Assembly (NCBI GenBank): GCA_016839765.1
Contig: JAEOTP010000080.1
Coordinates: 1 to 27,979, forward strand
Direction of reading: 5' to 3'
DNA length: 27,979 nt
Source: Promethearchaeota archaeon
GTDB taxonomy: Archaea > Asgardarchaeota > Lokiarchaeia > Sigyniarchaeales > SOKP01
This document shows positions 6,252-12,746 of the stretch, piece by piece. Position numbers and translations under genes: made by a program. Position 1 is the stretch's first letter; each line of letters starts with the position of its first letter. The notes beneath the pieces were generated by a model. It made no database searches and was not told the origin of the DNA. It was given only the letters and a program-made list of their open reading frames with translations.

Positions 6252-7403
6252 TCAGAAGAGTGGGTACTTTCCATATTCTTTTGCTGCTCCAATCATCCAA
6301 CTTAGGCGATCAACCGATATACCTGGATGAAAATTCGCGGGAGATAACATATATCCACCGCCATGTCCAAGAGCCTTAATAGCATTTTTCACAGCATCCT
6401 CAACTTCCTGTTTAGTAGCATCAACCAAAATATGACGTGTATCAATATTTCCTGATAAGCATAATTTATTACCAATTTTTTTCTTAACCAGATAGGGATC
6501 GACAAGAGGTGGTTCTAAACACTGAAGCCCATCAAATCTAGATTCAACAATGAAATCCAAAAGAGTTGTAATATCTCCATCTGTATGTAATATAAATTTT
6601 CCACCCCATTCATGGATTGCGTCTGCTACTTCTTGATAGCATGGTAATAAATACTTATAGAAATACTTTGGATTAATCATTGGACCTCCACTATGTGCGA
6701 TATCTCCCCCTTCAAGAAAAACTTTCGCTCCACAATCAGAATAAGCTTTAAAAATTGTTAAAACATAGTCAGTAGTAAATCGAAATCGTTCTTCAATTAA
6801 TTTAGGGTCATTTTTTAATGCACGAGCGAAGTAGTTCATTCCCATACCTTGCCAAACAGGCGGAAAAATAGAAGTAAGAGCATCTTGAGCAATAATATAG
6901 ATGTCATCTTTAATATCACGACACTTTCGTAAAACTCCTTTATAAAATTTTTTAGCTCTTTTATATTCTTCTTTCAAATCGGGTTTAGGATATGCTTCCC
7001 AATCTTCTCGATTTTTAATATACCCTCCATAGTAATCTGGATACGGATTTCCATCTATATTCTTTATTCTATGTCTTTTCCCAAAAATATCAGTCATTTC
7101 AGTTTTACTTTCGATGATAAATGGTATATAATGAATGCCGACTCCATCAAATCCTAGTTCATAAGCTGCTCTGACACATTTCGCGAAAACAGATATTTCA
7201 ATATCATCGAGGATTGAATTTATTCTATCCAACCATTCATCTGAATATTTTTTTTCCATCTCATCAAAAATATCAAACGCGTTTCTTTCTGGTTTACCAA
7301 TAACTTGATCAGCTACATTACCATCGAATTGTATTGTATGAATGGGAATTCTATCTGGTTCTTCTAGATTTAGAGCTGTCCAAATACGTTCAAAATTATT
7401 CAT
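6252..7403 (-). CDS. Uroporphyrinogen decarboxylase (URO-D/MtaA-like) family protein
   Basis: EEPDRIP N-terminus, GDIAHSGGPMINP, LHTDG, GNIDT and GGGYMLS motifs. It lacks the HxC zinc motif of MtaA-type enzymes. Confidence 0.85.
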   Translation of the reverse strand: MNNFERIWTALNLEEPDRIPIHTIQFDGNVADQVIGKPERNAFDIFDEMEKKYSDEWLDRINSILDDIEISVFAKCVRAAYELGFDGVGIHYIPFIIESKTEMTDIFGKRHRIKNIDGNPYPDYYGGYIKNREDWEAYPKPDLKEEYKRAKKFYKGVLRKCRDIKDDIYIIAQDALTSIFPPVWQGMGMNYFARALKNDPKLIEERFRFTTDYVLTIFKAYSDCGAKVFLEGGDIAHSGGPMINPKYFYKYLLPCYQEVADAIHEWGGKFILHTDGDITTLLDFIVESRFDGLQCLEPPLVDPYLVKKKIGNKLCLSGNIDTRHILVDATKQEVEDAVKNAIKALGHGGGYMLSPANFHPGISVDRLSWMIGAAKEYGKYPLF

Positions 7404-7495
7404 AAAATATAAACCAAAATCTCAAAATAATTGAGTTATATTTATTAAAACAGAGAAATAAATTTTAAGAAAAGTAACTTTATTGAGTAATTGCA

Positions 7496-8257
7496 GTGCA
7501 GATTAAAAGTACTTTAGAAAGACTTAGAAATTTCTTGGATTCCCAAATTCAAAATGGAGTAAAAGTAAAGGTTTATACCAGAAAAGATGATCAACTGAAT
7601 TACTTTAGAGAAATTAATATAGGGGTAAAATATGAAGAATTCAAAGAAATAATCCTTCAAGAGGAAACTAAATTAGAATTGGGAGGCGTAGATCAAAAAT
7701 CCTTTTCTCTTGTTTATCCAATAGAAGAGTTAGACTTAGTAAATAATGGAAAAATACTATTAATTGGCCCTGAAATCAAAGAAATATCGAATAAAACTGT
7801 AGATTTTGGATTATTTTTATTAATTGGAGTTGATAATCTTCCAGAAAATTCTTTTGATGAATTGAAGAATCTTAATTTTATTTCAAATGGAATTGAAGGC
7901 TTTATGATTCGGACTATACCAAGAAGATTTTGGTGTAGGTTAACTAAATCTATTATTAGCAAATTTTCTTTTGAATTCCTAGGTAATGCCATAATGTTTC
8001 TATATCAGCAGAAATTCAAGGACATTATTAAGTCCATGGAAATAATATTTATAAACTCAAATCCAGAATTAATAGATTCTTTTATTGACATGAGCTCATC
8101 GATTAGATTGGATATAGAACAAAAGTGGAGGAAAAAAGTAAAAGAATGGAAGAGAAGAGTTGACTGTGACTATGATTGGGATTGCAATGAATGTCCCTAT
8201 TATGATATATGTGAAGATGTTAAAGAAGTATTAGGGAAAAGAGAGGGGTTAGATTAA
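7496..8257 (+). CDS. Short acetyl-CoA synthase beta-subunit (AcsB/CdhC)-like protein with a C-terminal four-Cys motif
   Basis: ETKLELGG, IxLIGPEI and WCRLTK resemble a CdhC segment; C-terminal CDYDWDCNECPYYDIC; adjacent to cooC. Family assignment is from recalled motifs, not a search. Confidence 0.65.
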   Translation: MQIKSTLERLRNFLDSQIQNGVKVKVYTRKDDQLNYFREINIGVKYEEFKEIILQEETKLELGGVDQKSFSLVYPIEELDLVNNGKILLIGPEIKEISNKTVDFGLFLLIGVDNLPENSFDELKNLNFISNGIEGFMIRTIPRRFWCRLTKSIISKFSFEFLGNAIMFLYQQKFKDIIKSMEIIFINSNPELIDSFIDMSSSIRLDIEQKWRKKVKEWKRRVDCDYDWDCNECPYYDICEDVKEVLGKREGLD

Positions 8258-9036
8258 TTAATAATTTTAAGAAACCTATTAGAATTGCGATTGTTGGTAA
8301 AGGTGGAGTTGGAAAGACTGTAATTACAGTTTTATTTACAAAAATTATTACTGAATATTATGATTACAAACTTCTATTGATTGATGCTGATCCTACTCAT
8401 CCACATTTAAGCAATATGGTTAAAGTTAAACCCAATAAATCCCTTGAGGAATTAAGAATTGAGGCTGTAAAGAAGGCGCACAACGGAAGAGAATCTGCTC
8501 AAAAACTTGCTGAGAGAATAGATTTTGATGTGTATGAAGGGATGGCTGAAAGTAAAAATTTTTGCTTGTTTTCAATTGGTCAACCAGAAGGTCCTGGATG
8601 CTTTTGTCCATCTAATATTCTTCTGAGAAAAGTGATCGAGTCAATATCTAAAGATTTTGATATTATCTTAATAGATGGTGAAGCTGGACTTGAACAAATT
8701 AATCGGATGGTGTTAAAATCTATTGATATCCTTATAATTATAACAGATTTGTCTCTAAGAAGCATTGAAACCGCAAACTCTATAAGAAATCAAGCTAAAA
8801 AGTATACAAATTATAAAAATTTAGGTGTTCTAATCAATAAGGCTAAAGGAAATATTGATATCATTGCTAACAAGCTAAAAGAATTAGAACTTCCTTTAAT
8901 TGGCTCAATACCAGAAGATAATATTATACTGGAATTCGATTTACAAGGAAAGCCTCTTATTGATATTCCAAAGGATTCCGTAAGTTATGAAAGCTTAAAA
9001 AATGCAATAGAAGAGCTATTCTCTTCTTTTAATTAA
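8257..9036 (+). CDS. cooC: CooC/AcsF nickel-insertion ATPase (MinD/ParA type); N-terminus extended upstream of the ORF-track start at 8377
   Basis: The open frame upstream of 8377 encodes RIAIVGKGGVGKT (Walker A). Downstream motifs are IDADP, GPGCFCP (CxC Ni site) and DGEAGLE. Probable ATT start at 8257. Confidence 0.9.
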   Translation: MNNFKKPIRIAIVGKGGVGKTVITVLFTKIITEYYDYKLLLIDADPTHPHLSNMVKVKPNKSLEELRIEAVKKAHNGRESAQKLAERIDFDVYEGMAESKNFCLFSIGQPEGPGCFCPSNILLRKVIESISKDFDIILIDGEAGLEQINRMVLKSIDILIIITDLSLRSIETANSIRNQAKKYTNYKNLGVLINKAKGNIDIIANKLKELELPLIGSIPEDNIILEFDLQGKPLIDIPKDSVSYESLKNAIEELFSSFN

Positions 9037-9523
9037 ACTGTTTCATAATTTCATTTACCCATGAAATTGCTTTCTCCTTTGATTCTTCAGGATTATTATT
9101 TAGTGGTTCACGAAAACCAATCTTTCCTATAATTTCTGTATCTTTTAATGCACTACTGAATCGTTCTAATCCTTTTGCAGTTCCTCCAGCGCTACAAGTC
9201 CAAATAGCTATTTTTTTGTCAGAAAGATCATACATAGATAAAAATGAGCGCAATGGCGGTGAGTAAGTCCAAGCCCATACTGGAGTTCCTAAAAATAATA
9301 AATCATAATCGAGAGGGTTTTTATCAATTTCATGTAATTTAGGTTTCTTTTTCATTGTTGCTTGAAACCCTCCCCACATATATTTCATTGAACTACTTGG
9401 GTTAAGCTGCTTAATTGGCTTTAGCTCTAAAATGTCAGCTTTTGTTATATCTTCAATAATTTCAGCAATGAATTGGGTATTTCCCGTAAGAGAATAGTAA
9501 ACTATTAAAATTTTTTCAATCAT
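9029..9523 (-). CDS. Flavodoxin family protein
   Basis: YYSLTGNT and YDLLFLGTPVWAW motifs. Overlaps the 3' end of cooC by 8 bp, convergently. Confidence 0.9.
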   Translation of the reverse strand: MIEKILIVYYSLTGNTQFIAEIIEDITKADILELKPIKQLNPSSSMKYMWGGFQATMKKKPKLHEIDKNPLDYDLLFLGTPVWAWTYSPPLRSFLSMYDLSDKKIAIWTCSAGGTAKGLERFSSALKDTEIIGKIGFREPLNNNPEESKEKAISWVNEIMKQFN

Positions 9524-9588
9524 TTTTGTTAATAGGCTTTTTTAAACTAAAGAATAGCACTTAAGATAAATATTTAATTAATTTCTAA

Positions 9589-9605
9589 GAAAAAGTTTTT
9601 ATATT
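9589..9605 (+). promoter_or_regulatory. Putative BRE/TATA promoter for the leader-leuS transcript
   Basis: GAAAAAG-TTTTTATA lies about 24 nt before the ATG at 9627, consistent with a leaderless start at that ATG. Confidence 0.5.
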
Positions 9606-9626: not shown

Positions 9627-9716
9627 ATGATCTCAAATAATACTGCACCACAATCAGGCGTAAAAGCAAAATTTTCTTTAATTGATTTACTTGCAGTGTT
9701 ATTGTTATTATTATAA
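9627..9716 (+). CDS. Leucine-rich leader peptide (uORF) upstream of leuS: MISNNTAPQSGVKAKFSLIDLLAVLLLLL*
   Basis: Translated by hand: 29 codons with 8 Leu, ending TTA TTG TTA TTA TTA TAA; 132 nt upstream of the leuS ATG. Confidence 0.75.
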   Translation: MISNNTAPQSGVKAKFSLIDLLAVLLLLL

Positions 9717-9830
9717 GCGAAACCAATCCGCCTATTCTTTTTCTATTAAAATTCTCACGGATTGTTTCGCGTGGTATGGATTTTACTTGAAATAGATCAT
9801 AGGTGGGGCGTTTCTGATGATACATCAAAA
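9717..9830 (+). promoter_or_regulatory. Structured leuS leader with alternative helices (candidate attenuator)
   Basis: GCGAAACCAATCCG (9717-9730) pairs with CGGATTGTTTCGC (9758-9770). Alternatively, 9719-9747 pairs with 9791-9814. Confidence 0.65.
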
Positions 9831-9848: not shown

Positions 9849-12746
9849 ATGAAAAAAATGTATAATGCACAAGAAATTGAAAAGAAATGGCAAGATAAAT
9901 GGGAAGAAGCTAAAATATTTGAAGCTAACCCTGATACTTCGAAAATTAAGATTTTTTTCACCTCCCCGTACCCTTATGCTTCTGGAACTCTACATATAGG
10001 TCATGGAAGAAGTTTCGTGAATGGTGACATATTTGCACGGTATTATCGAGCTAAAGGATATAATGTTTTATATCCTATGGCATTTCATATAACAGGAACT
10101 CCAGTTTTAGCAGTTTCCTCATCAATCAAGAGAAATGATGTTAAAATTATCACCAGAATGAAAGAGTATGTCTCTTTACACACAAAAAATAAAAAAGAAG
10201 TGGAAAAAATTGTAGAAAGTTTTAAAGATCCTTGGAATATCGTAGGTTATTTTTCGAATACAATGAAAAAAGATTTTAAATCAATTGGAATGAGTATTGA
10301 CTGGAGGAGAGAATTTACAACTGGAGATGAGTTGTATAATAAATTAATTGAATGGCAATACTATAAATTTCATGAGAAAGGTTATTTAGAAAAAGGAGAT
10401 TACCCAATACTTTATTGTCCTCGATGTGAAAATGCAGTTGGGGAAGATGACATTGTTAGTGGTGATGAGCTTAATCTAGAGATTAATGAGTACGTTTATA
10501 TAAAATTCCCTTTCAATGATTCATACCTAGTTCCGGCTACATTAAGACCAGAAACAATTTATGGTGTTACCAATATATGGCTCAACCCAAATGGAATCTA
10601 TGTCTATGCTCGAGTGGATGGAGAAAAATGGATAATTTCTGAAGAAGCAGTCTCTCTTTTAAAAAATCAAAATAAATCCATAATTATATTGGAAAAAGTT
10701 AGGGGGAGCGATTTAATAGGTAGGAAAGCTAAATCAGTTTATGGTAATAGAGATATCTTAATTCTTCCAGGGGAATTCGTAGATACCTCTGTTGCTACTG
10801 GTGTAGTATATTCTGTCCCTGCTCATGCTCCTTATGATTATATAGCATTAGAAGATTTGAAAAATAATAAATCAATGATAAACCAATTCAACCTTAACGA
10901 ACAAGATATTAATAAGATAAAACCTATTCAAATTATTGACTTAGAAGAAGTCCGAGATATTCCTGCTAAATTCTATTGTAATAAATACAAGGTTTCGTCG
11001 CAAAATGATATTGAAAAATTAGATAAGGCTACAGCGGACAATTATAAAACTGAGTTTTATACTGGAATCTTAAACGATAAGTGCAACAATTATGAGGGTA
11101 TCCCTGTAAATAAGGCAGTAATTCAAGTAATTGAAAATCTTAGAAGCATGGATAAAGCAGATAGGTTATATATTCCAGTAACAAGAGATCTTCGATGTAG
11201 GTGTGGAGAAAATATAATAATTACTATTTTGAAAGATCAGTGGTTTCTCAATTTTAATACTGGTAACTGGAAGCAAAATGCCTTTGATTGCTTGAATATG
11301 ATGACTATTGTACCCAAGAAATATCGATTAAATTTTGAGAATGTTTTTAATTGGTTAGAAAAAAGACCATGCGCACGAAAACGAGGATTAGGTACGAAGC
11401 TACCATTTGATAAGGATTGGATAATTGAATCCTTGAGTGATTCTACAATCTATATGAGCTTCTATACCATCTCTCACCATTTAAAGCATAATAATATCAA
11501 ACCTGATCAATTAATCCCTGAATTTTTTGATTTCATATATTTAAAGAAGGGAGATAGCCAACACATTTCAAGGATAACAAAAATTAATGAGAAGCTATTG
11601 GAAAAAATGCAAGATGAATTTCACTACTGGTATCCAGTAGACCATAGACATACTGCTATAATGCATATTTCCAATCATTTAAGCTTTTATATATTCCATC
11701 ATGTTGCGATATTTCCTAATCAATTGTGGCCCAGAATCATAACTTTAATTGAACCGGTAATCATTGAAGGTCAAAAAATGGGTAAGTCAAAAGGAAATGT
11801 GAGATCTTTAGCAGATATTCAAAATAAATATTCTGCAGATTTATTTAGGTTTTACATTTCGCATAGTGCCGATTTAGGAATTAATATGGACTGGAAAGAA
11901 AAGGAAATTCAAGCCGTTAAAACCCATATTAATAGATTTTATAATTTCTTTTCTGAAAATGGTCAAGAGATTCAAGATTTAGGACTTCAGTATAAAAATA
12001 TAGAATCGAAATATGCGAAGGTAATCATTTCAAAAATAATACAGAACTTTTTAGAAGTAGATAAATCATTAAAACAGTTTAATTTACGACGCTATCTCCA
12101 ACTTTCATTTTATGAAACATTCAATTTAATTCGAGATTTAAAGAAATTTGTCGAAAGTAAAGAGGATTTCAAAATTGTCTTTAAATTGGTATATGAGGAT
12201 TGGCTTAAGGTGCTTTCATTAGCTATGCCCCATCTATGTGAAGAATTATGGGAATTTTATGGTAATAGGGGATTTATTTCTAATTCAGTTTGGAGAGATT
12301 TAAATACGGCTTACATAAATGAAGAACTTGAAATTGAATTTTACTATATTTCCAATCTTATTGATGATATATTAAGTATTAAAAAAATAATAAAATCTCA
12401 AGATTATAACGAAATATTTATATACACTGCCCCAAACTGGAAACAAGATGTTTTAAACGTGATAATTTCTAAGAAAGGAGATTTTAATATAATTATTGAT
12501 GAATTGAAACAAGAGACAGAGCTTATGAAAAATCAAGATATTATTCCCTTTATTAAACTTCAAATTAAAGATCGTATTTGGGAAAAATTATTTCCTCAAA
12601 TCAGTGAGCAAGAATTATTGAAACAATATTTGGAATATATTGAAAAGAGAGTAGATACGAAGGTTATTATAAATTCAGAATATGACCCTAAGCAAAGATC
12701 AAATAAAGCAATACCTTTTAAACCTGCTATTTACATTGATATTTGA
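9849..12746 (+). CDS. leuS: Leucine--tRNA ligase (archaeal/eukaryotic type)
   Basis: PYPYASGTLHIGH (HIGH motif), KMGKS (KMSKS variant), CP1 editing motifs ATLRPET and GVVYSVPAHAPYD, IESLSDSTIY, C-terminal AIPFKPAIY. Confidence 0.97.
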   Translation: MKKMYNAQEIEKKWQDKWEEAKIFEANPDTSKIKIFFTSPYPYASGTLHIGHGRSFVNGDIFARYYRAKGYNVLYPMAFHITGTPVLAVSSSIKRNDVKIITRMKEYVSLHTKNKKEVEKIVESFKDPWNIVGYFSNTMKKDFKSIGMSIDWRREFTTGDELYNKLIEWQYYKFHEKGYLEKGDYPILYCPRCENAVGEDDIVSGDELNLEINEYVYIKFPFNDSYLVPATLRPETIYGVTNIWLNPNGIYVYARVDGEKWIISEEAVSLLKNQNKSIIILEKVRGSDLIGRKAKSVYGNRDILILPGEFVDTSVATGVVYSVPAHAPYDYIALEDLKNNKSMINQFNLNEQDINKIKPIQIIDLEEVRDIPAKFYCNKYKVSSQNDIEKLDKATADNYKTEFYTGILNDKCNNYEGIPVNKAVIQVIENLRSMDKADRLYIPVTRDLRCRCGENIIITILKDQWFLNFNTGNWKQNAFDCLNMMTIVPKKYRLNFENVFNWLEKRPCARKRGLGTKLPFDKDWIIESLSDSTIYMSFYTISHHLKHNNIKPDQLIPEFFDFIYLKKGDSQHISRITKINEKLLEKMQDEFHYWYPVDHRHTAIMHISNHLSFYIFHHVAIFPNQLWPRIITLIEPVIIEGQKMGKSKGNVRSLADIQNKYSADLFRFYISHSADLGINMDWKEKEIQAVKTHINRFYNFFSENGQEIQDLGLQYKNIESKYAKVIISKIIQNFLEVDKSLKQFNLRRYLQLSFYETFNLIRDLKKFVESKEDFKIVFKLVYEDWLKVLSLAMPHLCEELWEFYGNRGFISNSVWRDLNTAYINEELEIEFYYISNLIDDILSIKKIIKSQDYNEIFIYTAPNWKQDVLNVIISKKGDFNIIIDELKQETELMKNQDIIPFIKLQIKDRIWEKLFPQISEQELLKQYLEYIEKRVDTKVIINSEYDPKQRSNKAIPFKPAIYIDI

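Follow-up and report, generated by a model that had tools for sequence, protein, structure and literature searches.

We find that the leader of an archaeal leucyl-tRNA synthetase gene (leuS) has the makings of an attenuator in which a translating ribosome senses the cognate amino acid, a reading to which we assign a probability of about 0.85. The leader lies on a 27,979-nt stretch of contig from a Promethearchaeota archaeon, called the window here, for which an earlier note had proposed that ribosomes stalling on a run of leucine codons in a short upstream open reading frame (uORF) raise leuS expression when charged tRNA-Leu is scarce. The conserved frame of this uORF, its specificity for Leu and the recurrence of matches between codon run and downstream gene in other leaders all support the attenuator reading; the general scope first attached to it, across Asgard archaea and across synthetases, does not hold.

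The uORF itself is as described, with 29 codons, Leu at eight of the final 12, five Leu codons followed immediately by TAA, and 132 nt between the stop codon and the leuS ORF at 9849, whose product is an archaeal-type LeuRS (Table 1). The suspected promoter element is likewise present: positions 9587-9595 are rich in purines and resemble a BRE, positions 9596-9605 resemble a TATA box, and the pair lies 22-40 nt 5' of the uORF ATG. A TATA-like motif begins 28-35 nt before the ATG in most of the 52 related leaders described below. Archaeal promoter spacing in general places the expected start site at, or a few bases 5' of, such an ATG. Judged from this spacing, the uORF mRNA would be leaderless or nearly so. 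A helix said to abut the stop codon begins at the first base past it, and the guess of an Asgard-like host agrees with the closest named relatives, which are Promethearchaeia (Lokiarchaeia) MAGs with identity up to 93%. Further upstream in the window (6252-9036) lie genes for an MtaA-like methyltransferase, a 253-aa ACS-beta-like fragment and a MinD/ParA-like ATPase, with no visible link to the leader.

Table 1. Features of the leuS leader and its flanks, in window coordinates.
Feature	Position	Strand	Evidence
Flavodoxin-like gene, divergent, bounding the intergenic region, outside the element	9029..9523	-	ORF and profile call
BRE-like and TATA-like promoter	9587..9605	+	Start site predicted at the uORF ATG or a few nt 5' of it
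Leader uORF	9627..9716	+	ATG start, 29 codons, TAA stop, Leu-rich C-terminus
Helix H1, 5' arm (codons 4-7)	9636..9646	+	Pairing in 86-92% of cells; double changes at 5 pairs
Helix H1, 3' arm, overlapping Ala-Val-Leu-Leu codons	9693..9703	+	Covariation counts as for the H1 5' arm
Five consecutive terminal Leu codons (TTA TTG TTA TTA TTA), proposed sensing codons	9699..9713	+	Leu at -2 and -3 in 48/51 and 49/51 leaders
Segment 2, helix A 5' arm	9717..9729	+	0 nt past the stop in 47/52; 90% paired; double changes at 8/13 pairs
U-rich tract, helix A loop and helix B 5' arm; candidate aCPSF1/FttA terminator	9733..9753	+	U4 counts, U conservation
Segment 3, helix A 3' arm and helix B apical loop	9759..9770	+	Covariation, partner-pairing tests
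Segment 4, helix B 3' arm, burying the U-tract and excluding helix A	9770..9806	+	Double changes at 16/21 pairs
leuS, archaeal-type leucyl-tRNA synthetase, regulated gene	9849..12746	+	TIGR00395, 943 bits (cut-off 648.5)

Within the family, a uORF of 26-32 codons ending in Leu codons precedes leuS at 52/52 distinct orthologous loci with upstream DNA, which span four genera and LeuRS identities of roughly 40-100% (nearly all above 60%) and needed no exclusions; these leaders are kin, and counts made on them describe conservation and not independent trials. Their last 12 codons contain between 5 and 9 Leu (mean 6.9). The middle of the uORF (codons 8-17) has 22% amino acid identity among leaders, and its frame is nonetheless free of in-frame stops: none occurs among 170 distinct codon states, where the other two frames have 21/185 and 10/168 and 9% is expected. 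The stop codon stands in the same place and is variously TGA (30 leaders), TAA (20) or TAG (2). The synonymous swaps foreseen for a Leu sensor are found as well: all six Leu codons occur, and the dominance of TTA (260/360) is due in part to AT bias and to helix H1. The leader folds more stably than shuffled sequences (z = -3.9). Two loci show irregularities, namely a lost uORF stop that extends the frame three codons into segment 2 (L017, genome G051) and an in-frame TAA within the leuS start region (L004, genome G042).

Such a TTA run could in principle be a chance product of AT-rich DNA, as the genome has a GC content of about 30% and TTA makes up 52% of its Leu codons. At least six Leu in the last 12 codons are, however, a feature of only 5 of its 2,616 short upstream ORFs, in a genome that has 2,674 called genes, so that Leu runs before unrelated genes are rare; this rarity, the 52/52 conservation, the protected frame and the covariation set out below effectively refute chance, to which we give practically no weight, in agreement with the argument originally made. 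It is also highly improbable that the 29-residue peptide is itself functional as a tail-anchored membrane peptide co-expressed with LeuRS. Its polar N-terminus, hydrophobic C-terminus and conserved length would suit such a role, but Ile and Phe, which are usual in membrane anchors and whose codons are one base away from TTA, are nearly missing from the pooled last 12 codons (3 and 4, or 7 in all, compared to 360 Leu), the middle of the peptide is poorly conserved and helix H1 accounts for its conserved ends.

The genome carries a second LeuRS gene, of bacterial type and with no leader, on contig C75 (L047:547-3333, minus strand). Bacterial-type LeuRS is present in 55 of 60 family genomes and the archaeal type in about half; this archaeal family thus has a near-universal bacterial-type LeuRS, a patchy archaeal one, and both in about half of its genomes. 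A LeuRS tree would suit either vertical descent or transfer of the family's archaeal-type gene. Genera g1 and g11 mostly possess both types, and all 12 bacterial-type loci sampled there lack the leader. The archaeal type was not found in genera g5 and g8; five of their bacterial-type leuS loci carry a Leu-run uORF and the same compensated helices, and an nhmmer profile of the 52 leaders matches two of these five with E-values of 3e-8 and 9e-7, and a third at 0.014. One further genome has the leader before an archaeal-type LeuRS of a different clade (L074, a partial sequence). The leader thus appears to track function, being found before three LeuRS lineages. In other genera neither LeuRS gene has it, and the distribution is patchy. 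Three bacterial-type leuS loci (L264, L273, L275) have leaders that look degenerate by eye, with the U-tract helix kept and a uORF that lacks a clear ATG. A check across Asgard leuS genes had been suggested, and the leader was found in one family only: it was present at none of the about 30 (up to 31) archaeal-type loci checked in other Asgard families (0/31), and three genomes of the sister family have nothing comparable. An 11-codon Leu-rich ORF in genome G199 was considered as a leader and judged to be chance. The leader may explain why a second LeuRS is kept in about half of the genomes, namely as a back-up that can be induced in an organism in which no LeuA was found.

Three helices covary in the leader: H1 within the uORF, and A and B after the stop codon, the latter two being mutually exclusive. 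Covariation exceeds that of shuffles on four of five measures (0/500), and helix arms pair better with their own partner than with those of other leaders in 41 of 49 cases. Helix B, which is AU/GU-rich, pairs the U-tract with a purine-rich segment downstream. In folding runs, masking of segment 2 moves the fold from A to B in silico, and in its absence helix A is the first to appear during transcription (P 0.88); the final minimum is helix B (-18.5 versus -14 kcal/mol), and equilibrium favours B in every ribosome state. Departures from helix B are fewer on the U side (22) than on the purine side (58), and this retention of the U side while the purine side drifts suggests that the U residues of the tract matter in themselves. 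At least two U4 tracts lie in the helix A loop of 38/52 leaders, compared to 11% of intergenic background windows. The Asp-Leu-Leu-Ala codons are complementary to segment 2 and could pair with it as a 1:2 helix; the covariation of this helix is not above that of shuffles, and it is absent from free folding. Covariance models of Rfam leaders, T-boxes and riboswitches do not match the leader, the one weak hit having an E-value of 0.82. Since the Ala-Val-Leu-Leu tail doubles in part as the 3' arm of H1, only the extra Leu codons are likely to form the sensor.

The same arrangement of H1, helix A, U-tract and helix B recurs in a paralogous leader on contig C64 (about 64540-64760, minus strand; L322, with relatives L323-L352), which is present in 84 of 95 genomes of genera g1 and g11 before a gene for a protein of about 60 residues. 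Its uORF has about 25 codons with about one Leu near the end and no Leu run. The downstream gene has a strong Shine-Dalgarno (SD) sequence and an apparent start codon that is ACG, CTG, TTG or ATG depending on the genome, and its product matched nothing in Pfam or a protein atlas. Partial conservation of the uORF peptide makes an arrest peptide possible, and the presence of this leader before a non-orthologous gene points to a scaffold that can be reused. Seen from this paralogue, the leuS leader might be a generic translation-coupled switch that responds to ribosome traffic or nascent-peptide arrest, with its Leu codons a by-product of H1 and AT bias. A scaffold that lacks the Leu run in so many genomes, before an unrelated small gene, would fit such a switch, as would the fact that an H1 arm fixes part of the uORF tail. 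The leuS leaders, however, average more Leu in their last 12 codons than H1 needs, and leaders of unrelated sequence before leuA-like genes and trpB2 repeat the cognate match, so that we regard a generic switch as quite improbable. The Val-Leu end of the paralogous uORF comes from H1, and the extra Leu codons are hence the specific part of the leuS leaders.

Cognate codon runs also precede biosynthetic genes, which the earlier note had named as a place to look. A blind scan of the genome yielded only two uORFs with at least three terminal Trp codons, both before trpB2; the two trpB2 copies lie on contig C50 (L038:630-2045 and L039:5334-6734), each with a Trp-run uORF. Because the Trp codon is TGG, AT bias cannot explain these runs. 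Trp-run uORFs occur at 21/30 trpB2 loci of the family and at 9/30 loci from four other Asgard families, making five families in all; the leaders in the other four (L220-L223, L227, L235, L236, L238 and L244) look homologous. RNAalifold returned only a weak consensus for the trpB2 leaders (-0.76 kcal/mol). Every leuA-like gene sampled in the family (6/6) follows a Leu-run uORF whose sequence is unrelated to the leuS leader. At these loci (L307-L310, L312 and L313) the uORFs have 31-42 codons and, by eye, a single hairpin directly past the stop, often without a looped U-tract. No LeuA-family (HMGL-like) gene was found in the host's own 96%-complete assembly. The expectation that other synthetases would carry runs of their own amino acid was not borne out, there being no cognate-run uORF before any of 15 in the genome; IleRS lies at a contig end, and the 15 do not include the Ala, Cys and class I Lys synthetases. 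Other candidates from the blind scan, with His, Thr, Val, Tyr, Phe or Cys runs, neighbour unrelated genes and were rejected. Two further uORFs came to our attention: one of 14 codons on contig C3, upstream of 466 (L276), with three Trp codons 208 nt 5' of a class Ic TyrRS-like synthetase, an amino acid mismatch that may reflect chance, and a Phe-rich one 88 nt upstream of a tryptophanase-family gene on contig C61 (11913-13541, L045).

Collectively, we consider it slightly better than an even bet that these leaders form an Asgard control network, with Leu sensed at leuS and leuA and Trp at trpB2; aCPSF1/FttA, a CPSF73-like nuclease, would be gated in this network by leaderless uORFs at a switchable U-tract. 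In archaeal termination, aCPSF1/FttA reads U-tracts. It needs at least two U4 tracts to bind, a rule that holds for the Loki orthologue too, which complements in Methanococcus maripaludis (PMC8716108); in the FttA structure, U-rich RNA is held at -30 to -36 and a U at -23 (PMC11616081). By eye, the spacing of the two U-tracts in the leader matches the FttA requirement. The factor is encoded in 25/30 family genomes and 4/4 of the same genus; a full-length, KH-domain aCPSF1 was not found in the host assembly, probably because of an assembly gap.

For the leuS leader, we therefore favour as fairly probable a mechanism in which the time that a ribosome spends on the Leu codons decides whether aCPSF1/FttA terminates transcription at the U-tract, a shortage of Leu leading to read-through. 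We infer each of its steps, namely translation of the uORF, stalling, termination and the direction of the response. The mRNA would begin at the uORF, leaderless or nearly so, and the first ribosome would engage the uORF while RNA polymerase is still transcribing the leader. Its dwell time on the Leu codons would read out the supply of charged tRNA-Leu and would set whether aCPSF1/FttA uses the U-tract 20-35 nt past the stop. Under ample Leu the transcript would be cut short, with a predicted cut near 9750, and under scarce Leu-tRNA the polymerase would read through to leuS.

Two other ways of switching can be weighed against FttA gating. In a classical scheme, helix B would itself serve as the intrinsic terminator, folding once the ribosome arrives at the stop codon; B does lie downstream of A and exclude it, has the greater stability and appears if segment 2 is masked. 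Bacterial-type terminators, consisting of a GC-rich hairpin and a U run, were nevertheless rejected here: no terminator-like site was found, helix B is AU/GU-rich, and a U4 run lies within 20 nt past helix B in only 10/52 leaders compared to 47/52 with one in the helix A loop. We regard this scheme as very unlikely. Alternatively, a Leu-sensing ribosome could act post-transcriptionally, with A or B setting ribosome loading on leuS or mRNA decay. The layout of a predicted leaderless uORF with a cognate run at its end and a helix past its stop matches that of mycobacterial polycysteine leaders (10.1101/834739), the single hairpins of the leuA-like leaders would be in keeping with it, and aCPSF1 is also an RNase. 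Pairing of the loop to the leuS start is, however, no better than in controls (-6.4 kcal/mol versus -6.9 for non-cognate and -7.2 for shuffled sequences) and an SD core is present at the leuS start in only 2/49 cases, on which grounds SD occlusion was rejected; the stop-to-start distance varies from 103 to 152 nt with its last 30-70 nt not conserved, and helix B wins at equilibrium whatever the ribosome does. We thus consider a post-transcriptional switch unlikely, if less so than an intrinsic terminator.

How the ribosome would gate FttA can be pictured in two ways. In one, which we put forward tentatively and at somewhat less than even odds, a ribosome halted over the terminal Leu codons masks the first bases of segment 2 and leaves FttA little room at its site; helix B can then form and hide the U-tract, B being the ON state. 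This version agrees with the best-conserved Leu codons being the terminal ones and with the absence of a 1:2 helix that would lock the leader. In the other, which is more doubtful, a ribosome stalled further upstream frees segment 2 and helix A closes the FttA window early, A being the ON state and resembling the antiterminator 2:3 helix of bacteria; the FttA geometry and the upstream Leu codons fit this version. The footprint of an archaeal ribosome extends 15-16 nt from the P-site codon (PMC7261190). A ribosome waiting on the last Leu would accordingly cover 6 nt of segment 2, and one at the stop codon 9 nt; the former weakens helix A from -12.8 to -7.8 kcal/mol without abolishing it. Stalled and terminating positions are thus 3 nt apart, and the switch must hinge on timing. 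The FttA geometry argues against the gating model, in that the window most favourable to cleavage would already be open by the time either helix could form. Also to be counted against it are the incomplete loss of helix A under the ribosome, the lack of a covarying 1:2 helix, the dominance of TTA, the kinship of the leaders, the scaffold that lacks a Leu run, the host assembly without a full-length aCPSF1 and an actinobacterial Leu-run leader, mentioned below, that did not respond to codon mutation.

The claim that control of this kind is not established in archaea agrees with our literature search, in which we found no archaeal example of leader-peptide attenuation, although few subscription papers were covered and the result is not proof of absence. 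New here is that the leader occurs in front of LeuRS genes of three lineages, and that a paralogous scaffold exists which lacks the Leu run. The leader offers a natural substrate of roughly 200 nt for asking whether binding of the ribosome and of FttA to archaeal RNA polymerase is mutually exclusive, a hypothesis raised in PMC11616081. If the attenuator is real, archaea regulate transcription through ribosome position, and they would do so without a hairpin terminator, on a scaffold reused before non-orthologous genes. It would constitute direct genomic evidence for regulatory transcription-translation coupling in the closest prokaryotic relatives of eukaryotes, and would place uORF-based amino-acid sensing in the Asgard lineage, beside eukaryotic uORF control.

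Leader-peptide attenuation is a textbook bacterial mechanism, exemplified in E. coli by pheM-pheST, leuL-leuABCD and trpL. The leuS leader shares with these a short uORF of cognate codons before a synthetase or biosynthetic gene and exclusive helices after it, but it is archaeal and predicted to be leaderless, its cognate codons abut the stop, and it lacks two hallmarks of classical attenuators, the 1:2 helix and the intrinsic terminator, with its U-tract placed inside a helix loop rather than behind a hairpin. In E. coli tnaC-tnaAB, free Trp is sensed through nascent-peptide arrest in a Rho-dependent manner. There, as proposed here, a ribosome near the uORF stop gates a factor-dependent terminator just downstream, yet tnaC relies on Rho and free Trp and the archaeal leader would rely on codon hunger and aCPSF1/FttA. 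Attenuation of pheST and tnaC-type systems are both mentioned by Seliverstov et al. (2005, PMC1262725), who predicted that Streptomyces leuS and trpS are preceded by attenuators of the classical kind. The Streptomyces leuS attenuators have the same target and a leader peptide with Leu codons; they differ in their terminator hairpins and poly-U. The actinobacterial LEU element lies before leuA, and its Leu codons are paired to the SD, forming a pseudoknot (PMC1262725). A Leu-run leader with alternative structures is common to this element and the archaeal leader, and the leuA-like genes of the present family have Leu leaders too, whereas the Leu codons of the archaeal leader pair within the uORF instead. 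One Leu-run leader in Actinobacteria was reported to be insensitive to codon mutation (PMC1262725). Mycobacteria possess leaderless polycysteine sORF attenuators that together make up a 'ribulon' (Canestrari et al., 10.1101/834739). Their helix hides the SD of the next gene, a property that was looked for and not found in the archaeal leader; what the archaeal leader is proposed to share with them is a leaderless uORF that ends in a cognate run, an RNA helix kept from forming by a stalled ribosome, and several independent loci that read the same tRNA pool.
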